38,287 nucleotides of DNA from a virus (UHGV-1369766); one strand, 5' to 3'; positions 3,913-38,287 are shown, numbered from the stretch's first letter. A program made the numbers and translations. Notes: generated by a model not told the origin, from the letters alone.

Positions 3913-4374
3913 TTAAAATGGGATCTCATCGTCGAAGTTCATAGGAGGTTCGTTGTGTTGTGCTGGTGATGATTGCTGCTGTGGCTTCTGTGATTGCCTG
4001 CTGGCTGCTTGTTGTTTGCTGTCGCCAATGCCGCCAAGCATTTGCATCACGCCATTAATTCCGACATGAACCTCGGTTGTGTAACGGTCTTGTCCTGACT
4101 GGTCTTTCCACTTTCTGGTTCTCAGCATTCCCTCGAAATAAATCTGATCACCTTTTTTCACATACTGCCCCACGACCTCAGCCAGTTTCCCGGATACAGC
4201 AACACGATGCCATTCAGTCAATTCCTTTTGCTCGCCAGTATTTTTATCTCGCCATTGTTCTGACGTGGCTATTGTCAGGTTAGCGAACGCTGTTCCTGAT
4301 GGTGAGTATCGAACTTCCGGGTCTTGTCCTACCCGACCAAGGATAATCACCTTATTTACGCCTCTGCTTGCCAT
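3913..4374 (-). CDS. ssb: Single-stranded DNA-binding protein
   Basis: 153 aa; OB-fold-like N-terminal region, Gln/Pro-rich linker and acidic C-terminal tail ...NFDDEIPF typical of SSB. Confidence 0.9.
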
Positions 4375-5082
4375 TTATGCCGCCTGTTTTAGTTCGTTAA
4401 CTCTGATGTTCATTACCTGAACGCATTTAGCCTGCGCCTCCTCGTTGCCAGCCATTAATTGCCAGTCATGCTGATAACGCTCGATGAGTTTTTTCTTGTC
4501 AGTTTCTGTCGCTGCATAATCGCTGAAGTCTTTCAGGATTTGTTCGCAGTCAATCGATGGAGATTTCTGGTTGGTATTTTCTGGTGATGGTTTGTTATCT
4601 GATGCTGGTATTGCCCATCCCGGCAGCGATGGAGGGAGCCAGTAAAATCCTGTTCCATCCTTGAGTTTTGCCCTGTGCCACCCCTGCTTTTTATCGAGAG
4701 ATGTTTGTGCAAAACCTTCCTCAAGGTTATACAGATACCGACCGATTCCCCACTGAACGGCAGCACGCTTCATTGCACCGGAACGACCACCTTTGACGGC
4801 TTCTACCTGTGTGTTTTCAGCAGCATCCCATTTGGTTACCCATTCGGAATCAATCTTTATTGATATGCCGCATTCAACGCCGCCGTTGTTGGGAATATCG
4901 CGGTATTCATTGCGCCATCCTGCTTTGCCGCAAACATCGTCCAGGCGTTTCATGATTGCCCGGTTCGTGACATAAGCCAGCACCATAGCCCACACCTTGC
5001 CATCGCGTGTTTTACCGCTTTGCTGTATTCGCCATTCGATATCTTCAGGGCTGAATGGCTCATCGAATTTATTCAAATCCAT
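4375..5082 (-). CDS. Single-strand annealing recombinase (Rad52/Sak-like N-terminus, Erf-like C-terminus)
   Basis: 235 aa; N-terminal part with GIGRYLY-type motif; C-terminal ~60 aa (...YAATETDKKKLIERYQHDWQL...CVQVMNIRVNELKQAA) matches my recollection of the P22 Erf C-terminus; GAGGTGA RBS. Confidence 0.75.
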   Translation of the reverse strand: MDLNKFDEPFSPEDIEWRIQQSGKTRDGKVWAMVLAYVTNRAIMKRLDDVCGKAGWRNEYRDIPNNGGVECGISIKIDSEWVTKWDAAENTQVEAVKGGRSGAMKRAAVQWGIGRYLYNLEEGFAQTSLDKKQGWHRAKLKDGTGFYWLPPSLPGWAIPASDNKPSPENTNQKSPSIDCEQILKDFSDYAATETDKKKLIERYQHDWQLMAGNEEAQAKCVQVMNIRVNELKQAA

Positions 5083-5090
5083 AATTCACC

Positions 5091-5279
5091 TCAGAATGGT
5101 AATTCGGATGGGGAGGAAAGAAATTCGCGCTCATTCATGCGCTCTCTTTGTGCTTGCCATAAACAAAGTTGTTTCTTTGATTTATCTCCCGCTTTACGCC
5201 AGTAACGAGCCTCAGCAATGTGATATTCTCTTTTTAATCGACTTAACTCTGGAGTTTTCGCCAGCTCTACCGGAATCAT
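5091..5279 (-). CDS. Hypothetical small basic protein (possible recombination accessory factor)
   Basis: 62 aa; GGAGG RBS 5 nt before ATG; start overlaps the stop of the upstream Kil-like gene. Confidence 0.5.
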   Translation of the reverse strand: MIPVELAKTPELSRLKREYHIAEARYWRKAGDKSKKQLCLWQAQRERMNEREFLSSPSELPF

Positions 5280-5389
5280 TTAGACCTCCATTTTCTGTAG
5301 GCTTCGACGGCCTCACGAAACATCTTTTCATCGCCAATAAAAGTGGCGATAGTGAATTTAGTCTGAATAGCCATAAGTGTTTTATCCAT
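5276..5389 (-). CDS. kil: Kil-like host-killing protein (37 aa)
   Basis: MDKTLMAIQTKFTIATFIGDEKMFREAV... closely resembles my recollection of the lambda Kil N-terminus; its ATG overlaps the cIII stop (ATGGATAA). Below the ORF-track size cutoff. Confidence 0.55.
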   Translation of the reverse strand: MDKTLMAIQTKFTIATFIGDEKMFREAVEAYRKWRSK

Positions 5390-5528
5390 TTTTTGGAACT
5401 CCTGGCTGATTAAGTACGTCGATGAGTCGTTTCCATCCGTCACGTAATTTACGGGTGATTCGTTCAAGTAAAGATTCATTTAATTGGAAGGCACCCATGC
5501 GAGCGCCTCCCGCGATTGCGTAAATCAT
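5382..5528 (-). CDS. cIII: CIII-like protease inhibitor (48 aa)
   Basis: MIYAIAGG...ESLLERITRKLRDGWKRLIDVLNQPGVPKNG matches the conserved lambda CIII core as I recall it; AAGGAA RBS; not in the ORF track (<60 aa) and out of frame with the overlapping 5276..5479 track ORF. Confidence 0.7.
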   Translation of the reverse strand: MIYAIAGGARMGAFQLNESLLERITRKLRDGWKRLIDVLNQPGVPKNG

Positions 5529-5552
5529 GGGTGGTTCCTTATGTTGGTTTTA

Positions 5553-6521
5553 TTAGTAGGTTATTTTTGTTGCGAATACTTCGCCTTTTACGATGGCTGT
5601 TATGATATTTTTAGCAACATCTTCTGATGCGCCAACCTTGATAAGGTCAGCAAGTATTTTGTTATTTACTTCTTTCCGGTGAGCTTTATCCTTTGCTCTA
5701 CGCTCTTCTTCGTCCTTGATTCTTTTTTCTTCTGCTATTCTGGCTTGCTCTTTTACTTCAGCCTCGCGCCGGATTCGTTCAGCCTCCTCCTGTGCTTTTC
5801 GGCGTTCTGCTTCAATTGCCGCCTGCTTTTCTCTTTCAGCTCGTTCTGCTGCCTCTTTTGCTTCGCGCTGTGCTCGTTGCTCGGCTTCAATGCGTTCACG
5901 CTCTGCACGTTCCGCTGCGGCCTTAGCTTCTGCTTCTCGCCTTGCTGCTGCTTCAATTTCGGCTTTTGCCTTTGCTTCGGCTTCAGCTCTGGCTTTCTCT
6001 TCAGCTTCTCTTTTTAAGCGTTCTTCATGCTCTCGCTTTTCCTGCTCAGCTTTGAGTCTTGCCTCTTCTCTTTGGCGGTCAAATTCGCGATCCATCAAAA
6101 TCGCTATTTCATGGTCAGACTCAATTTGCTTTGCGAGAGCTTCAGCTGCTGCCTTAGCTTCTTCTTCGGCTTTAATCCGCGCCTGTTCTTCCTCATAATC
6201 AGTAAGAGGCTGGCGCGCCTTGGCTTTCAGTTCATCAAGGCGATCACGCACTGTCTTGCGGTTGGCATCAATTAGCTTTGGAATTTCCTTAAGTTCAGCA
6301 ACAAGGTCTTTGCCAAGACCATCGAGATATGTTTTCGTCTGCGCAACTTTATACGCCAGAGAAGCGATCTCCTTTCTGCCCTTTGCCGTTGTGATATCAG
6401 GCACAAAGGACATAACTTCACGTTCAACCTTTTGGAGAATTTCTTCAATCTGGTCGGCAGACTGAAATACAGTCATTGCATTTGCTTTTTCAATAACAAC
6501 TAAATCTGTTACTTCACTCAT
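5553..6521 (-). CDS. Hypothetical protein with long E/R/K/A-rich predicted single alpha-helix or coiled-coil segment
   Basis: 322 aa from the ATG at 6519-6521 (GGAGGAT RBS); ~110 aa of charged repeats (AEEKARAEAEAKAKAEIEAAARRE...); position analogous to the ea10/ral/sieB accessory segment of lambda. Confidence 0.65.
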   Translation of the reverse strand: MSEVTDLVVIEKANAMTVFQSADQIEEILQKVEREVMSFVPDITTAKGRKEIASLAYKVAQTKTYLDGLGKDLVAELKEIPKLIDANRKTVRDRLDELKAKARQPLTDYEEEQARIKAEEEAKAAAEALAKQIESDHEIAILMDREFDRQREEARLKAEQEKREHEERLKREAEEKARAEAEAKAKAEIEAAARREAEAKAAAERAERERIEAEQRAQREAKEAAERAEREKQAAIEAERRKAQEEAERIRREAEVKEQARIAEEKRIKDEEERRAKDKAHRKEVNNKILADLIKVGASEDVAKNIITAIVKGEVFATKITY

Positions 6522-34376: not shown

Positions 34377-34862
34377 TTATCTGATGTTACTGCTACTGTT
34401 GCATGTGACTGTATTTCCAAACCCTGAATTGCAGTTTGTGTAAGTGTCAACTCGTGTTGGATAGGGTTGAGTTATAACAGGCTGTCTCGCTTTTTGCTCG
34501 ATCGCTTGCATTGTGTTTACAGCCTGATAATTCAATAAAGCCTGCTGGAATGCTTGGCTTTGTGCTATTTGTTGGGCTTGTTCTTGGCTTTGTAATTGAA
34601 CATAAAGATTCTGAAGCTCAAGTCTTGCCTGTGCGTCACTTATCTTGCCTTCATCGACACCTTGCCCGAGCATCTTTGCAGCAAGGACATACAACTTAGG
34701 TGTTGGTGCTGATGCCATGCGTGAGTCGTTCTTCACACTGGCATCAAGGCAATTAGCCATATCGCTAAGCTTTTGATAGCGTTGTTCGCAACTTGCTTGA
34801 TAGTCACTTACTTTTGCGCATCCAACCAGCAGAAGCGGGATAATTAACAGTGATTTTTTCAT
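34377..34862 (-). CDS. Predicted lipoprotein (moron; candidate superinfection-exclusion or lysogenic-conversion factor)
   Basis: 161 aa from the ATG at 34860-34862 (AAGGAGAG RBS); signal peptide with lipobox MKKSLLIIPLLLVGC; Gln-rich mature region; minus strand, AT-rich, in the sieA/immI-equivalent slot between ejection genes and tailspike. Confidence 0.65.
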   Translation of the reverse strand: MKKSLLIIPLLLVGCAKVSDYQASCEQRYQKLSDMANCLDASVKNDSRMASAPTPKLYVLAAKMLGQGVDEGKISDAQARLELQNLYVQLQSQEQAQQIAQSQAFQQALLNYQAVNTMQAIEQKARQPVITQPYPTRVDTYTNCNSGFGNTVTCNSSSNIR

Positions 34863-34932
34863 ATGGTTAACTCTCCTTAGTTTTTCACAGGATATCATGA
34901 AGGCAATGCCATTTTAGCCGGAAACTAGATTT

Positions 34933-35199
34933 CTATGTTTCCTTCTTATTATTGCTATACATGGTCTTAAGCGTATCAAAGACAATTTTCTTAACCATCT
35001 CAGATTGTTGTTCTGCCATACGCTCTGCGTCGTCAATGTAAACAGATGCAGAGCTTTGTTTAGCCAATGATTCTTCAATCGCTGCAATTATCTCTGAGTT
35101 CAGCGACCTGTTATTCATCTTCGCACGCTGTTTAATTTTCGCGTGTAGTTCGTGCGTAAGCCTCAAGTGGAACTGCGCCTCATCGTATTTGCTGTACAT
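34933..35199 (-). CDS. mnt: Mnt-like ribbon-helix-helix repressor
   Basis: 88 aa from the ATG at 35197-35199; RHH core (QFHLRLTHELHAKIKQRAKMNNRSLNSEIIAAIEESL) and C-terminus ...DDAERMAEQQSEMVKKIVFDTLKTMY parallel P22 Mnt (...NDAERLADEQSELVKKMVFDTLKDLY) as recalled. Confidence 0.8.
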   Translation of the reverse strand: MYSKYDEAQFHLRLTHELHAKIKQRAKMNNRSLNSEIIAAIEESLAKQSSASVYIDDAERMAEQQSEMVKKIVFDTLKTMYSNNKKET

Positions 35200-35260
35200 C
35201 CTTGATGCCCTCACCAGTGGGTGGAATGGCATCGTAAAACCTACTGGATAAATCAACAAT

Positions 35261-35277: not shown

Positions 35278-35334
35278 TAACTATAGCTTACCGCAGCTCT
35301 GCTGTGGGGACTAATTGCGCCCGGAGCACATCAA

Positions 35335-37383
35335 ATGACTAATACCAATTACTTGGTCTCTATGCCGTCCACTCCTTTTTCGGCGCCACGAGCATTTAAA
35401 TCAGTGGCGAATGGGAAAATCTATATCGGAAACCCTGACACTGACCCGGTAAATCCTGCCAACCAAATCCCGGTATATATCGTTAATGAGGATGGCTCCG
35501 AGGTTCAGGTTTCACAGCCAATCATCATTAACGCCGGCGGCTTCCCGGTCTATAACGGCCAGATTATGAAGTTCATCACCAAACAGAACTTCAGTATGGC
35601 GGTTTATGATGCGTATGGAGCACAGCAGTTTTATTGGCCTGATTTATCAGAAATTGACCCATCTGCAATCATAGCCATGCTTTCGACTAGCGAAGGATCT
35701 GGAATGATTGGATGGGCGCGAAATTATTCTTGCGAGCTTGCAGCTACTGTTTCCGTATTTCTATCTGCACAAAAGATTAATTTATGGGAATATCGACATC
35801 TGGCGCTCGATACTATTGTTGATGGGGCTGAAGTCGTTGACTGGACACCCGCCATGATTCAGGCGCTGGTTGATGGTGCAAAATATAAGCGGCAGGTTTA
35901 TGCACCAGGCGGGAGATATTACTTTCAGAAAATGCCTGAGTTTGTAAATTTGGATTCCTCCGGTTCAACAACAAACATGTCCATGTATTCGCTGGTTGGT
36001 GACGGACACGATAAAACTATTTTCTGGACAGACAGTCTGGTTGGCAAGGAAATGCATTTCAGTACATGCCGCTTTTATTTTGATAAATTTAGTGTGCAGC
36101 GCGTGCTACAGGGGGATGATGCCGCATACCGGGATAGCAAGATACCCCTCATGCAGCTTGGACGCAGTACTGACATCTCTGCGGCCAGGCTCGGTTATAT
36201 GGGGGATGTACGCTTCAACGGCAGTCCGTGGGGTCTGAACATAGAGCACTGCTGGGACTCAATTTTCCAGGATGTCATTGTCCATAATTTCCAGACATCA
36301 GGCATTCGCATAGGCATGCATGATGTAGACAACAGTAATAACCTGTTGTTTATCAGAACACATATTGAAAGCTGTCAGTATAAAGGTGAAAACCTGTGTC
36401 GCGCCTTTGCTGATATGTCATATAAGACTGGTTCGCGGGTAAACCATAACATCACCCTCATTCAGCCGCATATTGAGCCTGTTAATCTGCGTTGCCATAT
36501 TTTTTATTCATCCTATGGAAAAAATATCAAAGTCATCAATCCGGCATTCAACCGAAACAATGGCTCCGTGGATAAAGGGTTATACCTCGACCCTTCTCTC
36601 GCTGCGCCAGCGGTGTACTCGTCGGATGGTGTCAACATCCACATTGATGGTGGTCAGATTCAGCATATCGGGCCACGCAGTGACACCGTTGCTCCCCTGT
36701 TTAAGTTTGTTGGTACGCATAAAGGTTGGCGGTGTGACAGCTACATTGATACCGGGAAGGAGACTTCACGCACTGATTTACTGTCTTCAGTTGACGTTTC
36801 AAGAAGCAATAATGGGTTACGTGAAATTTCATTTAAGGGAGCGACAGTCAACTCATTTACCTCGATGAGCTCTGTAGGCGACAGACTGAGAGTGGCTCCT
36901 TTAAATGACCTGCAAAAAGTATTCGATCTGGTTGCAGAAACCTTCATCCCACCGGGGGAAACGAACACTATCGCACGGATTATTGCGATGTATTCCAACA
37001 CGCAGGATTTATCCACTCCCCAGCAAAAGGCGTGGGATATCACCAGTGCCGGACATGCATCATTTAAGGCGTTGCGCGGTCAGCAGTACATCATTCAGGC
37101 CGGGGCAGTGGCGACGGTTAACGTAGGTGTCGGGGCACTGGAGCGGCGCGGAACTTATCTGATTAGCGGGGCGGAAAACAATAACCAACTTTTTGCGATG
37201 TTCTTTAATGTTCCAGGACAGGCTCCCAGTGAAATTAAAACTGGCTCCAGCGTTAATTTATCAAGAGTGCAACCTGATGCATCTGTCACCGGCAAGCTGT
37301 GTGTGTATCAGAATAATCAATATATCAATCTTGAAAACAGAACCGCATCCGCGGTGACTGTTAACGTCAATTTTTTTGCGTGA
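35335..37383 (+). CDS. Tailspike protein: P22-like N-terminal head-binding domain fused to a divergent receptor-binding domain
   Basis: First ~110 aa (…[47 protein letters not shown]…MAVYDA…) parallel the P22 gp9 N-terminus as recalled; the remaining ~570 aa do not. Confidence 0.9.
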
Positions 37384-37390
37384 GGTGATT

Positions 37391-37630
37391 ATGTCCTTAT
37401 CTTTATACCGCTCAACAAGGACCGTACAGGCTTTAAAGATAGCATCTGTCGCTATAGCTGAAGATTACTCGGCTGTTCTGAAAGATGCTTCAGGTAATGA
37501 GCTTATCGTAAGCGCCGATTATGTTGTGCGGGAAAAACCAAAGGCGGGTGGGTATTATATGAAAAATAATGATGGCTTTGAGGCATTTCTCGATAAAGAA
37601 GTTTTTGAAAGGGATTTCGCTCTCGTCTGA
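37391..37630 (+). CDS. Hypothetical protein
   Basis: 79 aa from the ATG at 37391 (GAGGTGA RBS) directly after the tailspike stop. Confidence 0.45.
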   Translation: MSLSLYRSTRTVQALKIASVAIAEDYSAVLKDASGNELIVSADYVVREKPKAGGYYMKNNDGFEAFLDKEVFERDFALV

Positions 37631-37722
37631 ATACTTGTTTTTCAGATGGCTATTCCTGTCGATTCAAGCTGGTATAGCCATCACTTCAATTCACCTGATT
37701 GTCATCAGGCTAGGTGGATATT

Positions 37723-38115
37723 ATGGATTATATTGGTTTCGATGTAATTTTAATCTGGTATGCTGGGGTAGGTTTCTTTTTATGGACTGTCGCCCAGATT
37801 ATCAGGGCGGGTGAAACAAATGGAGTATTCAATAATATTGCATGCCTGTTGCTGTTTGTTATCGCATGGCCGAAGATAATGTGGACACTTTGCTGCCTTA
37901 TTGTAAAGAGACTTTTTGATGTTGATCATCAATTATTATCAGAAAGCAGAGGTGTCAAGCGAGGCGGCGGGACGGAGCTTGCCACGCTGAGAGGAAGGTC
38001 GCTGATTACCGAAGATGGTGAAGCGATCGAGGGTGAAGCCTTGGACGATGTTAGCGTCATCGGGGTCGTGACATTTACTATCTGCGATGTCCGCGGGGAC
38101 AATACCGTTGTTTAG
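37723..38115 (+). CDS. Hypothetical protein with hydrophobic N-terminal half (extent uncertain)
   Basis: ATG at 37723 with AGGTGG RBS; AT-rich hydrophobic first half, then a compositionally different GC-richer tail that may not be coding in this frame. Confidence 0.3.
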   Translation: MDYIGFDVILIWYAGVGFFLWTVAQIIRAGETNGVFNNIACLLLFVIAWPKIMWTLCCLIVKRLFDVDHQLLSESRGVKRGGGTELATLRGRSLITEDGEAIEGEALDDVSVIGVVTFTICDVRGDNTVV

Positions 38116-38154
38116 TTGCAGTAAATTGGTGGAAGATTTCGCGTGGCAGGGTTC

Positions 38155-38172
38155 TTGGGGCATGGTTGGGGC
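38155..38172. other. Candidate attachment-site core copy (right)
   Basis: TGGGGCATGGTTGGGGCA, ~780 bp beyond the tailspike gene; pairs with the copy at 76-93. Confidence 0.25.
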
Positions 38173-38287
38173 ATGAGAAGTCATTAAATTTCGCCAAACA
38201 TTGCAAACAACACATGTTGATTGCTATCTCCAGCCATTGAAAATGGCGCTCCTGGACGATATTTGTCGATTTTTAAATTTACCGCGT

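Follow-up and report, generated by a model that had tools for sequence, protein, structure and literature searches.

Here, we report a tailspike gene from a P22-like Escherichia coli prophage that is a three-part mosaic, with its most recent crossover located within 16 nucleotides. The gene was found in a 38,287-nucleotide stretch of viral DNA (UHGV-1369766), called the window below. We put at about 0.7 the probability of the whole reading, in which this is a recombinant P22-like E. coli tailspike whose beta-helix depolymerase has been retargeted to a Klebsiella-type capsule. The protein would be the receptor-binding spike of a temperate P22-like E. coli podovirus, with residues 1 to 110 docking the trimeric spike onto the P22-type tail hub and a beta-helix enzyme binding and cleaving the host surface polysaccharide, opening the way to the outer membrane. 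One parent, an E. coli P22-type tailspike with a body of the same family already in place, would have crossed with a Klebsiella-prophage cassette at a 16-nt stretch coding for INLWEY, replacing aa 154 to 682 and two downstream open reading frames (ORFs). The new body would most likely depolymerise a Klebsiella-type (group 1, Wzy-dependent) capsule, on the surface of Klebsiella or of the E. coli minority with acquired Klebsiella-type capsules, and the phage would thereby be retargeted.

Genome setting and the tailspike gene

A temperate phage genome of the P22-like (Lederbergvirus) type fills the window, and its late region matches those of Klebsiella phage phiKp_30, E. coli phages E212 and CUS-3, and others at 94 to 97% identity. 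The genes upstream of the tailspike include homologs of the P22 coat protein, gp4 (P22_Tail-4), gp10 (Phage_stabilise) and the gp26 needle, together with homologs of the ejection proteins gp7 (P22_gp7), gp20 (Inj_translocase) and gp16 (Phage_P22_gp16). A gene for an Mnt/Arc-type repressor (34933..35259, minus strand; Pfam Repressor_Mnt, E = 1e-13; Arc, E = 1e-12) forms an immI-like region just before it, so that the tailspike follows the ejection-protein genes and the immI (mnt/arc) region, as gene 9 canonically does in P22. A 173-aa ORF (34377-34898, minus strand; phrog_6067, E = 2e-110, function unknown), with …LLLVGC… as a lipoprotein-like signal sequence, lies between the gp16 homolog and the repressor; its counterpart in a sister E. 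coli prophage (L013) is 96% identical. It occupies the position at which P22 carries sieA, and may be a superinfection-exclusion or moron gene. A promoter and terminator scan found nothing above chance.

The tailspike ORF (35335..37383, plus strand, 682 aa, ATG start) is real, and the first-pass annotation had its coordinates exactly. The exact protein (P0003) was found on 23 contigs from independent E. coli assemblies, among them GCA_013176605.1 and those of runs SRR36207224, SRR36207457, SRR36207407, ERR7123828 and ERR4426018, where it is labelled "phage tailspike protein [Escherichia coli]", and one of these contigs (L004) carries the host flank yecD-aspS-nudB-yebC-ruvC; this is therefore a real E. 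coli prophage, not an assembly chimera. The crossover described below falls in a short repeat-like conserved stretch, the type of site at which assemblers can mis-join, which speaks for a false joining of two phages. That reading has next to no probability and was rejected, as the identical 682-aa protein recurs on 23 contigs (NCBI isolate assemblies, independent runs) with the same P22-like upstream genes, and the host flank of L004 adds to this.

On another contig (L008, ERR7123828, positions 4050 to 6246), genes for a 343-aa glycine-rich protein (Gly_rich_2) and an integrase of 386 aa come after the tailspike, 79-aa and 130-aa genes. The window is arranged differently, its integrase having 419 aa and lying at 54-1313, and L008 may represent a different prophage backbone or a tandem element with the same cassette.

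The claim that only the first ~110 residues track P22 gp9 was borne out. A P22-type head-binding (tail-attachment) domain (35344..35664, plus strand) was found at aa 4 to 110 with Pfam Head_binding PF09008 (E = 4.9e-47; 159 bits against a cutoff of 24). Searches with phmmer against all PDB chain sequences matched Sf6 gp14 (E = 2e-41) and P22 gp9 constructs (E = 6e-36 to 2e-34), all beginning at aa 4 and every one ending at aa 110 or 111. The 25 PHROG matches listed of 27 were all confined to the N-terminal ~110 to 196 residues, and matches to the tailspike in Pfam and PHROGs concerned its N terminus only, with no informative family for the body. Past aa 111, there is no sequence match to the P22 endorhamnosidase body, which acts on Salmonella O-antigen; the earlier statement to that effect holds for sequence, and searching the PDB with a profile of the body-family alignment gave no match at E ≤ 10. 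The bacterial tailspike-like protein WceF of Pantoea stewartii (6tgf) also matched, at aa 10 to 150 (E = 1.3e-11), reaching past the head-binding domain into the linker and capping-helix region.

Full-length similarity to gp9 was not found, and among tailspikes of known specificity the nearest reaches only ~42% identity to the body. The suggestion that the body is of somewhat different composition did not survive measurement: the GC content is 0.459 in the head-binding part, 0.471 in the body and 0.482 in the whole window, and with values this nearly equal, composition was rejected as evidence for a swap.

Crossover and parental lineages

Domain swapping, which the first-pass annotation had deduced from the protein, was seen directly in the DNA, with two parental lineages and a located crossover. 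Using megablast against 50,697 phage records, nucleotides 1 to 327 of the gene matched phiKp_30 (95%), and nucleotides 439 to 2049 matched the "tail fiber protein" gene of Klebsiella phage vB_VIPKPNMC05 (98%). The 5' end of the tailspike gene of phiKp_30, a Lederbergvirus, has 95.7% DNA identity to window positions 35289-35661. Phage vB_VIPKPNMC05 (L001) is siphovirus-like and unrelated to P22, with tape-measure and lambda-J-like tail genes, and its similarity to the window spans 35773-38287, running beyond the tailspike stop to the window end. The same imported segment was found in only 1 of 5,426 complete E. coli genomes, that of AB66 (GCF_988244135.1; 98.9% identical), where the copy (L003) lies in a contractile-tail prophage that also encodes a sheath initiator and baseplate J. 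The whole imported cassette (35773..38287, plus strand; 97.5% identical to L001 and 98.9% to L003) comprises the body, a 79-aa ORF and a UmuD-like remnant.

The second parent (L013) encodes a 675-aa E. coli P22-type tailspike of the P0028/P0048 cluster. Proteins of this type are identical to the window protein up to aa ~153 except for one residue (V/I near aa 141) and ~45% identical from there on, and the 458 nt at 35335-35792 differ from L013 by a single mismatch. The linker and N-terminal capping helix of the body (aa 111 to 153; 35665..35793, plus strand) come from this P0028/P0048-type parent, and are ~25% identical to the corresponding stretch in the siphovirus-like and contractile-tail copies.

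The crossover was placed by three-way DNA comparison, 30-nt sliding identity and protein alignment. It lies within a 16-nt microhomology, TTAATTTATGGGAATA (35777..35792, plus strand), which codes for INLWEY (aa 147 to 153) and is identical in both parental lineages. The latest breakpoint is thus at aa 147 to 153, 43 residues inside the body family, and not at the head-binding/body boundary (aa ~110). Both parents have bodies of the same family (~42 to 45% identity), and the fusion of the head-binding domain to that family is therefore older than the crossover. Judged from the sequence, the gene was built in two layers: an older fusion of head-binding domain and body family, and a recent homologous exchange that replaced aa 154 to 682 and the DNA downstream. 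The swapped segment continues past the tailspike stop and includes both the 79-aa ORF and the UmuD-like remnant.

Among Klebsiella relatives, P0013, P0014 and P0015 are ~88 to 92% identical to the window protein up to aa ~506 to 528 and then diverge. The divergence point (window ~36850-36920) coincides with a low-confidence linker in the structural model described below, which suggests a second exchange boundary at aa ~506 to 528, swapping the C-terminal domain.

Body family, fold and surface target

Relatives of the body are confined to "tail proteins" of Klebsiella and E. coli prophages, in 41 homolog clusters with 41 to 100% identity and ~100% coverage of the body. The family is small, with 13 representatives at E ≤ 1e-3 (8 at E ≤ 1e-30) among 1.84 billion proteins; no sister-type (L013) body was found in complete E. 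coli genomes. N-terminal adaptors vary within the family and include the P22 head-binding domain, Tail_spike_N in a P2-like gpH position and a weakly matching T7-fibre N terminus; the N termini of the siphovirus-like phage and contractile-tail prophage members match no recognised domain.

Two family members, 245_48 and 248_38, occur in a recent screen of prophage depolymerases (Otwinowska et al., PLoS Biol 2026, PMC13123978, S4 Table). Both come from Klebsiella variicola INF336 (KL55), where they lie on different prophages, and both were scored there as having a beta-helical domain (PMC13123978). Over its printed 273 residues, 245_48 is 93.8% identical to the body; it was recorded as inactive, without usable expression (PMC13123978). 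The other protein, 248_38, belongs to the sister clade; over the printed portions it shares 41.6% identity with the body now in the window, and its identity to the E. coli parent P0048 is 81.6%. This protein has depolymerase activity, acting on KL46 only among 118 K-types and not on the KL55 of its host (PMC13123978), and the family therefore includes a proven capsule depolymerase. The N-terminal adaptors of both proteins (Tail_spike_N or none recognised) differ from the P22 head-binding domain of the window protein. By sequence, the body belongs to a family of Klebsiella-prophage depolymerases in which one protein has been characterised. In the same screen, 5 of 14 active enzymes targeted a K-type other than that of their host (PMC13123978), and the K-type of the host is an unreliable guide to specificity.

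The body was modelled as a monomer with AlphaFold2 (22 family sequences; mean pLDDT 80). In order, the model has a capping helix (helices at model residues 15 to 33 and 39 to 45, equal to aa 126 to 144 and 150 to 156), a long high-confidence beta-helix (aa ~158 to 491), an ill-defined linker of low confidence (aa ~507 to 526) and a C-terminal beta-rich domain. The second of these is a right-handed parallel beta-helix, a putative polysaccharide-depolymerase domain (aa ~154 to 491; 35794..36807, plus strand), which the linker joins to a predicted beta-sandwich-like C-terminal domain (aa ~528 to 682; 36916..37380, plus strand; AlphaFold2 secondary structure, pLDDT 54 to 88). The predicted fold class, a pectin-lyase-like right-handed beta-helix, is firm, and the model has no close structural relative. 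Structural neighbours found with Foldseek had low TM-scores and ~10% identity; P22 chains scored TM 0.18 to 0.26, so that the general architecture is shared only distantly. Several Klebsiella capsule depolymerases were among the neighbours. The solved enzymes Depo32 (K2, 7vz3), Kp32gp38 (K21, 9qrm/6tku), KP34p57 (8bke) and the K2-2 TSP (8iq9) had TM-scores of 0.37 to 0.43 to the body at ~10 to 13% identity, without detectable sequence homology.

Residues D223, D308, D332, E345, E381, H371, H379, R285, R356 and R407 are invariant across clades that are only 42% identical; D223, D308, D332, E345 and E381 are candidate catalytic or groove residues. Hydrolases and lyases are mixed among the structural neighbours, and the chemistry is therefore not settled by the fold. 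Hydrolysis of a glycoside bond via conserved carboxylates (candidates D308, D332, E345 and E381) is more likely than beta-elimination. A polysaccharide lyase acting at uronic acid, with the mosaic and the target as proposed above, is a distinctly less favoured alternative that nevertheless keeps some weight: hydrolase neighbours are equally strong (GH87, Depo32, CBA120 TSP2, GH28 and Kp32gp38), several of the invariant carboxylates lie on successive rungs, and the best HHpred match of 245_48 is the hydrolase KP32gp38 (PMC13123978). A body that only binds without catalysis, or that persists as an inactive relic in a decaying prophage, is improbable. That its closest relative, 245_48, could not be made as an active protein would fit such a relic, as would two soluble candidates found inactive in the same screen, in which 34 of 50 failed to express, and the probable gene remnant downstream (the 130-aa ORF). 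Against it stand the full P22-like gene set of the window, the recurrence of the exact protein on 23 contigs, the one active family member, and the acidic and aromatic residues that are invariant across the 42%-identical clades. The body also differs from that of AB66 by 14 nt and 5 aa in 529 codons; the predominance of synonymous changes against near-identical copies is consistent with a functional gene.

A different polysaccharide specificity, as the first-pass annotation had proposed, is suggested by the fold, by the KL46-active sister enzyme and by one co-occurrence with a K-locus. The last of these comes from AB66, whose K-locus (L012, NZ_OZ547461.1, 4550001-4600000) is a Klebsiella-style group 1 locus with the order galF, PAP2, wzi, wza, wzb, wzc, wbaP, glycosyltransferases, a putative Wzy, pyruvyl transferase, a Wzx-like gene, gnd, manCB and ugd, followed by an O9-family O-antigen cluster (wzm/wzt/wbdA). 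Three copies of IS1 lie in or beside the locus, and its PAP2 gene is cpsACP-like. The exact Wzy is common to K. pneumoniae and K. variicola. Among the 5,426 complete E. coli genomes, the serotype-specific central genes of the K-locus occur in no other genome, and the wzi-wzc block was matched at ≥99% identity only in AB66 itself. The O9-type wbdA region is present in 285 of them. The sole genome with the body is therefore also the sole genome with this K-locus, and a chance coincidence is ~285 times less likely with the K-locus than with O9, which favours capsule over O-antigen as the target from a single observation. The AB66 locus was compared with two known types and equated with neither: the K47 locus of E. 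coli HS was rejected because the central genes are in no other complete E. coli genome, and KL55 because AB66 has WbaP where KL55 loci have WcaJ. From that same difference, AB66 and INF336 have different K-types, so at least one of the two lysogens does not display the substrate of the enzyme.

P22-type tailspikes classically target O-antigen, and an O-antigen endoglycosidase like those of P22, Sf6 and HK620, perhaps directed at the polymannose O9/O3 antigen of E. coli and Klebsiella, was weighed against a capsule depolymerase. An O-antigen common to both genera would likewise explain the near-identical bodies, AB66 has the O9-family wzm/wzt/wbdA cluster, and a preprint describes a prophage of the Klebsiella-capsulated E. 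coli HS that uses the O9 antigen as receptor, with the capsule masking O9 (PMC13622650). We nonetheless consider an O-antigen target rather unlikely. Of 118 K-types, the sister enzyme acts on KL46 only, several Klebsiella capsule depolymerases are among the structural neighbours, and INF336, host of the 94%-identical copy, is O1/O2v2 and not O3; the O9-type cluster is in 285 of the 5,426 E. coli genomes, and the body is in 1, the one with the unique K-locus.

Capsule-directed bodies have a precedent on the same chassis in CUS-3, a P22-like phage with a K1 endosialidase spike. The P22-like coliphages phiHS3 and phiHS4 (Hueyvirus) of E. coli HS, which has a Klebsiella-derived group 1 capsule, carry Klebsiella-related, capsule-dependent tailspikes (bioRxiv 10.64898/2026.05.19.726188). 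They resemble the window phage in being temperate P22-like E. coli phages whose tailspikes cluster with receptor-binding proteins of Klebsiella phages and prophages, and in the exchange across phage families. The linked K-locus differs, being of the AB66 type for the window body and K47 for E. coli HS, and the phiHS3 and phiHS4 tailspikes probably belong to another body family: no Hueyvirus tailspike was among the tblastn matches of the body in the 50,697 phage records. Other late genes are common to phage Huey and the window.

Downstream genes and significance

A 79-aa ORF (37391..37630, plus strand) starts eight nucleotides past the tailspike stop, with a Shine-Dalgarno-like GAGGTGA that overlaps the stop codon. 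A homologous 79- to 80-aa ORF lies 7 to 11 nt past every body-family gene examined, whatever comes next, be it lysis genes, another fibre or a UmuD-like gene. The loci examined were the window, vB_VIPKPNMC05, the AB66 prophage, the E. coli P0028 prophage, a Klebsiella prophage with P0029, a P2-like prophage and a multi-RBP phage contig; outside the window, copies are at L001:9619-9858, L003:16615-16854, L013:5307-5549, L014:6420-6659, L015:6102-6341 and L016:6006-6248, on podovirus, siphovirus-like, myovirus and P2-like chassis. With 52 to 65% identity and 30 of 79 positions invariant, the copies are more strongly conserved than the adjoining bodies, which are 42 to 63% identical. The ORF had no Pfam match and one PHROG match of unknown function. 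It is predicted to adopt an OB-fold that weakly resembles the N-terminal domain of phage L Dec (6e3c), with an alignment limited to Dec residues 23 to 90. Dec has 134 aa and a C-terminal trimeric beta-helix stalk, which the 79-aa ORF lacks, and in podovirus, siphovirus-like and myovirus genomes alike the ORF accompanies a receptor-binding gene, not one capsid. As it moves with the receptor-binding body and not with a capsid type, a role in capsid decoration is doubtful. A spike accessory in folding, assembly or glycan binding is suspected from this synteny.

Farther downstream, a 130-aa ORF (37723..38115, plus strand) has a UmuD-like C-terminal 50 residues and an unrelated hydrophobic N terminus. 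It matched phrog_3469 over aa 79 to 128 only (E = 3.6e-19) and had no Pfam match; in the equivalent place, L013 has an intact 105-aa UmuD-like gene. The ORF, probably a remnant, belongs to the co-transferred segment. Over the final ~325 nt of the window (37963-38287), 142 complete E. coli genomes match at ~92%, annotated as hypothetical or as S24/S26 peptidase.

Body exchange on a conserved P22 adaptor is long established, from P22, Sf6, HK620, epsilon34 and CUS-3. Three papers appear to bear on such exchange (PMC2629481, PMC10408124 and PMC10684548). The window protein is like P22 gp9, Sf6 gp14 and the HK620 and CUS-3 tailspikes in its PF09008 N terminus, gene position, beta-helix body and module exchange. 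A recent cassette swap is an ordinary, well-known way of changing the surface target of a phage, of which this is an unusually detailed example. The concept is unchanged, body swapping on a conserved P22-type adaptor being textbook; the value lies in a clean, datable case: the breakpoint is narrowed to 16 nucleotides, the two parental lineages are identified, and one cassette is shared by three tail architectures from two genera. Such a case can guide the choice of cut sites when phage host range is engineered, and can help to follow genes moving between Klebsiella and capsule-mimicking E. coli.

Only the 79-aa ORF, strictly syntenic and with a predicted OB-fold, is potentially new. Tentatively, and with the odds against it, the body and the 79-aa protein might form an obligatory two-gene receptor-recognition module, mobile between podovirus, siphovirus-like and myovirus chassis, in which the weakly Dec-like protein would act as a tailspike accessory of a new kind, either as a dedicated factor for folding or assembly or as a subunit that rides on the spike and binds glycans, and the module would mark phage traffic between Klebsiella and rare Klebsiella-capsulated E. 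coli. If so, the missing 79-aa protein could explain the failure to make the near-identical Klebsiella enzyme alone, in a screen of prophage depolymerases of which 34 of 50 failed to express (PMC13123978). Were the 79-aa protein needed for the folding or function of the spike, it would have practical value for making prophage depolymerases.
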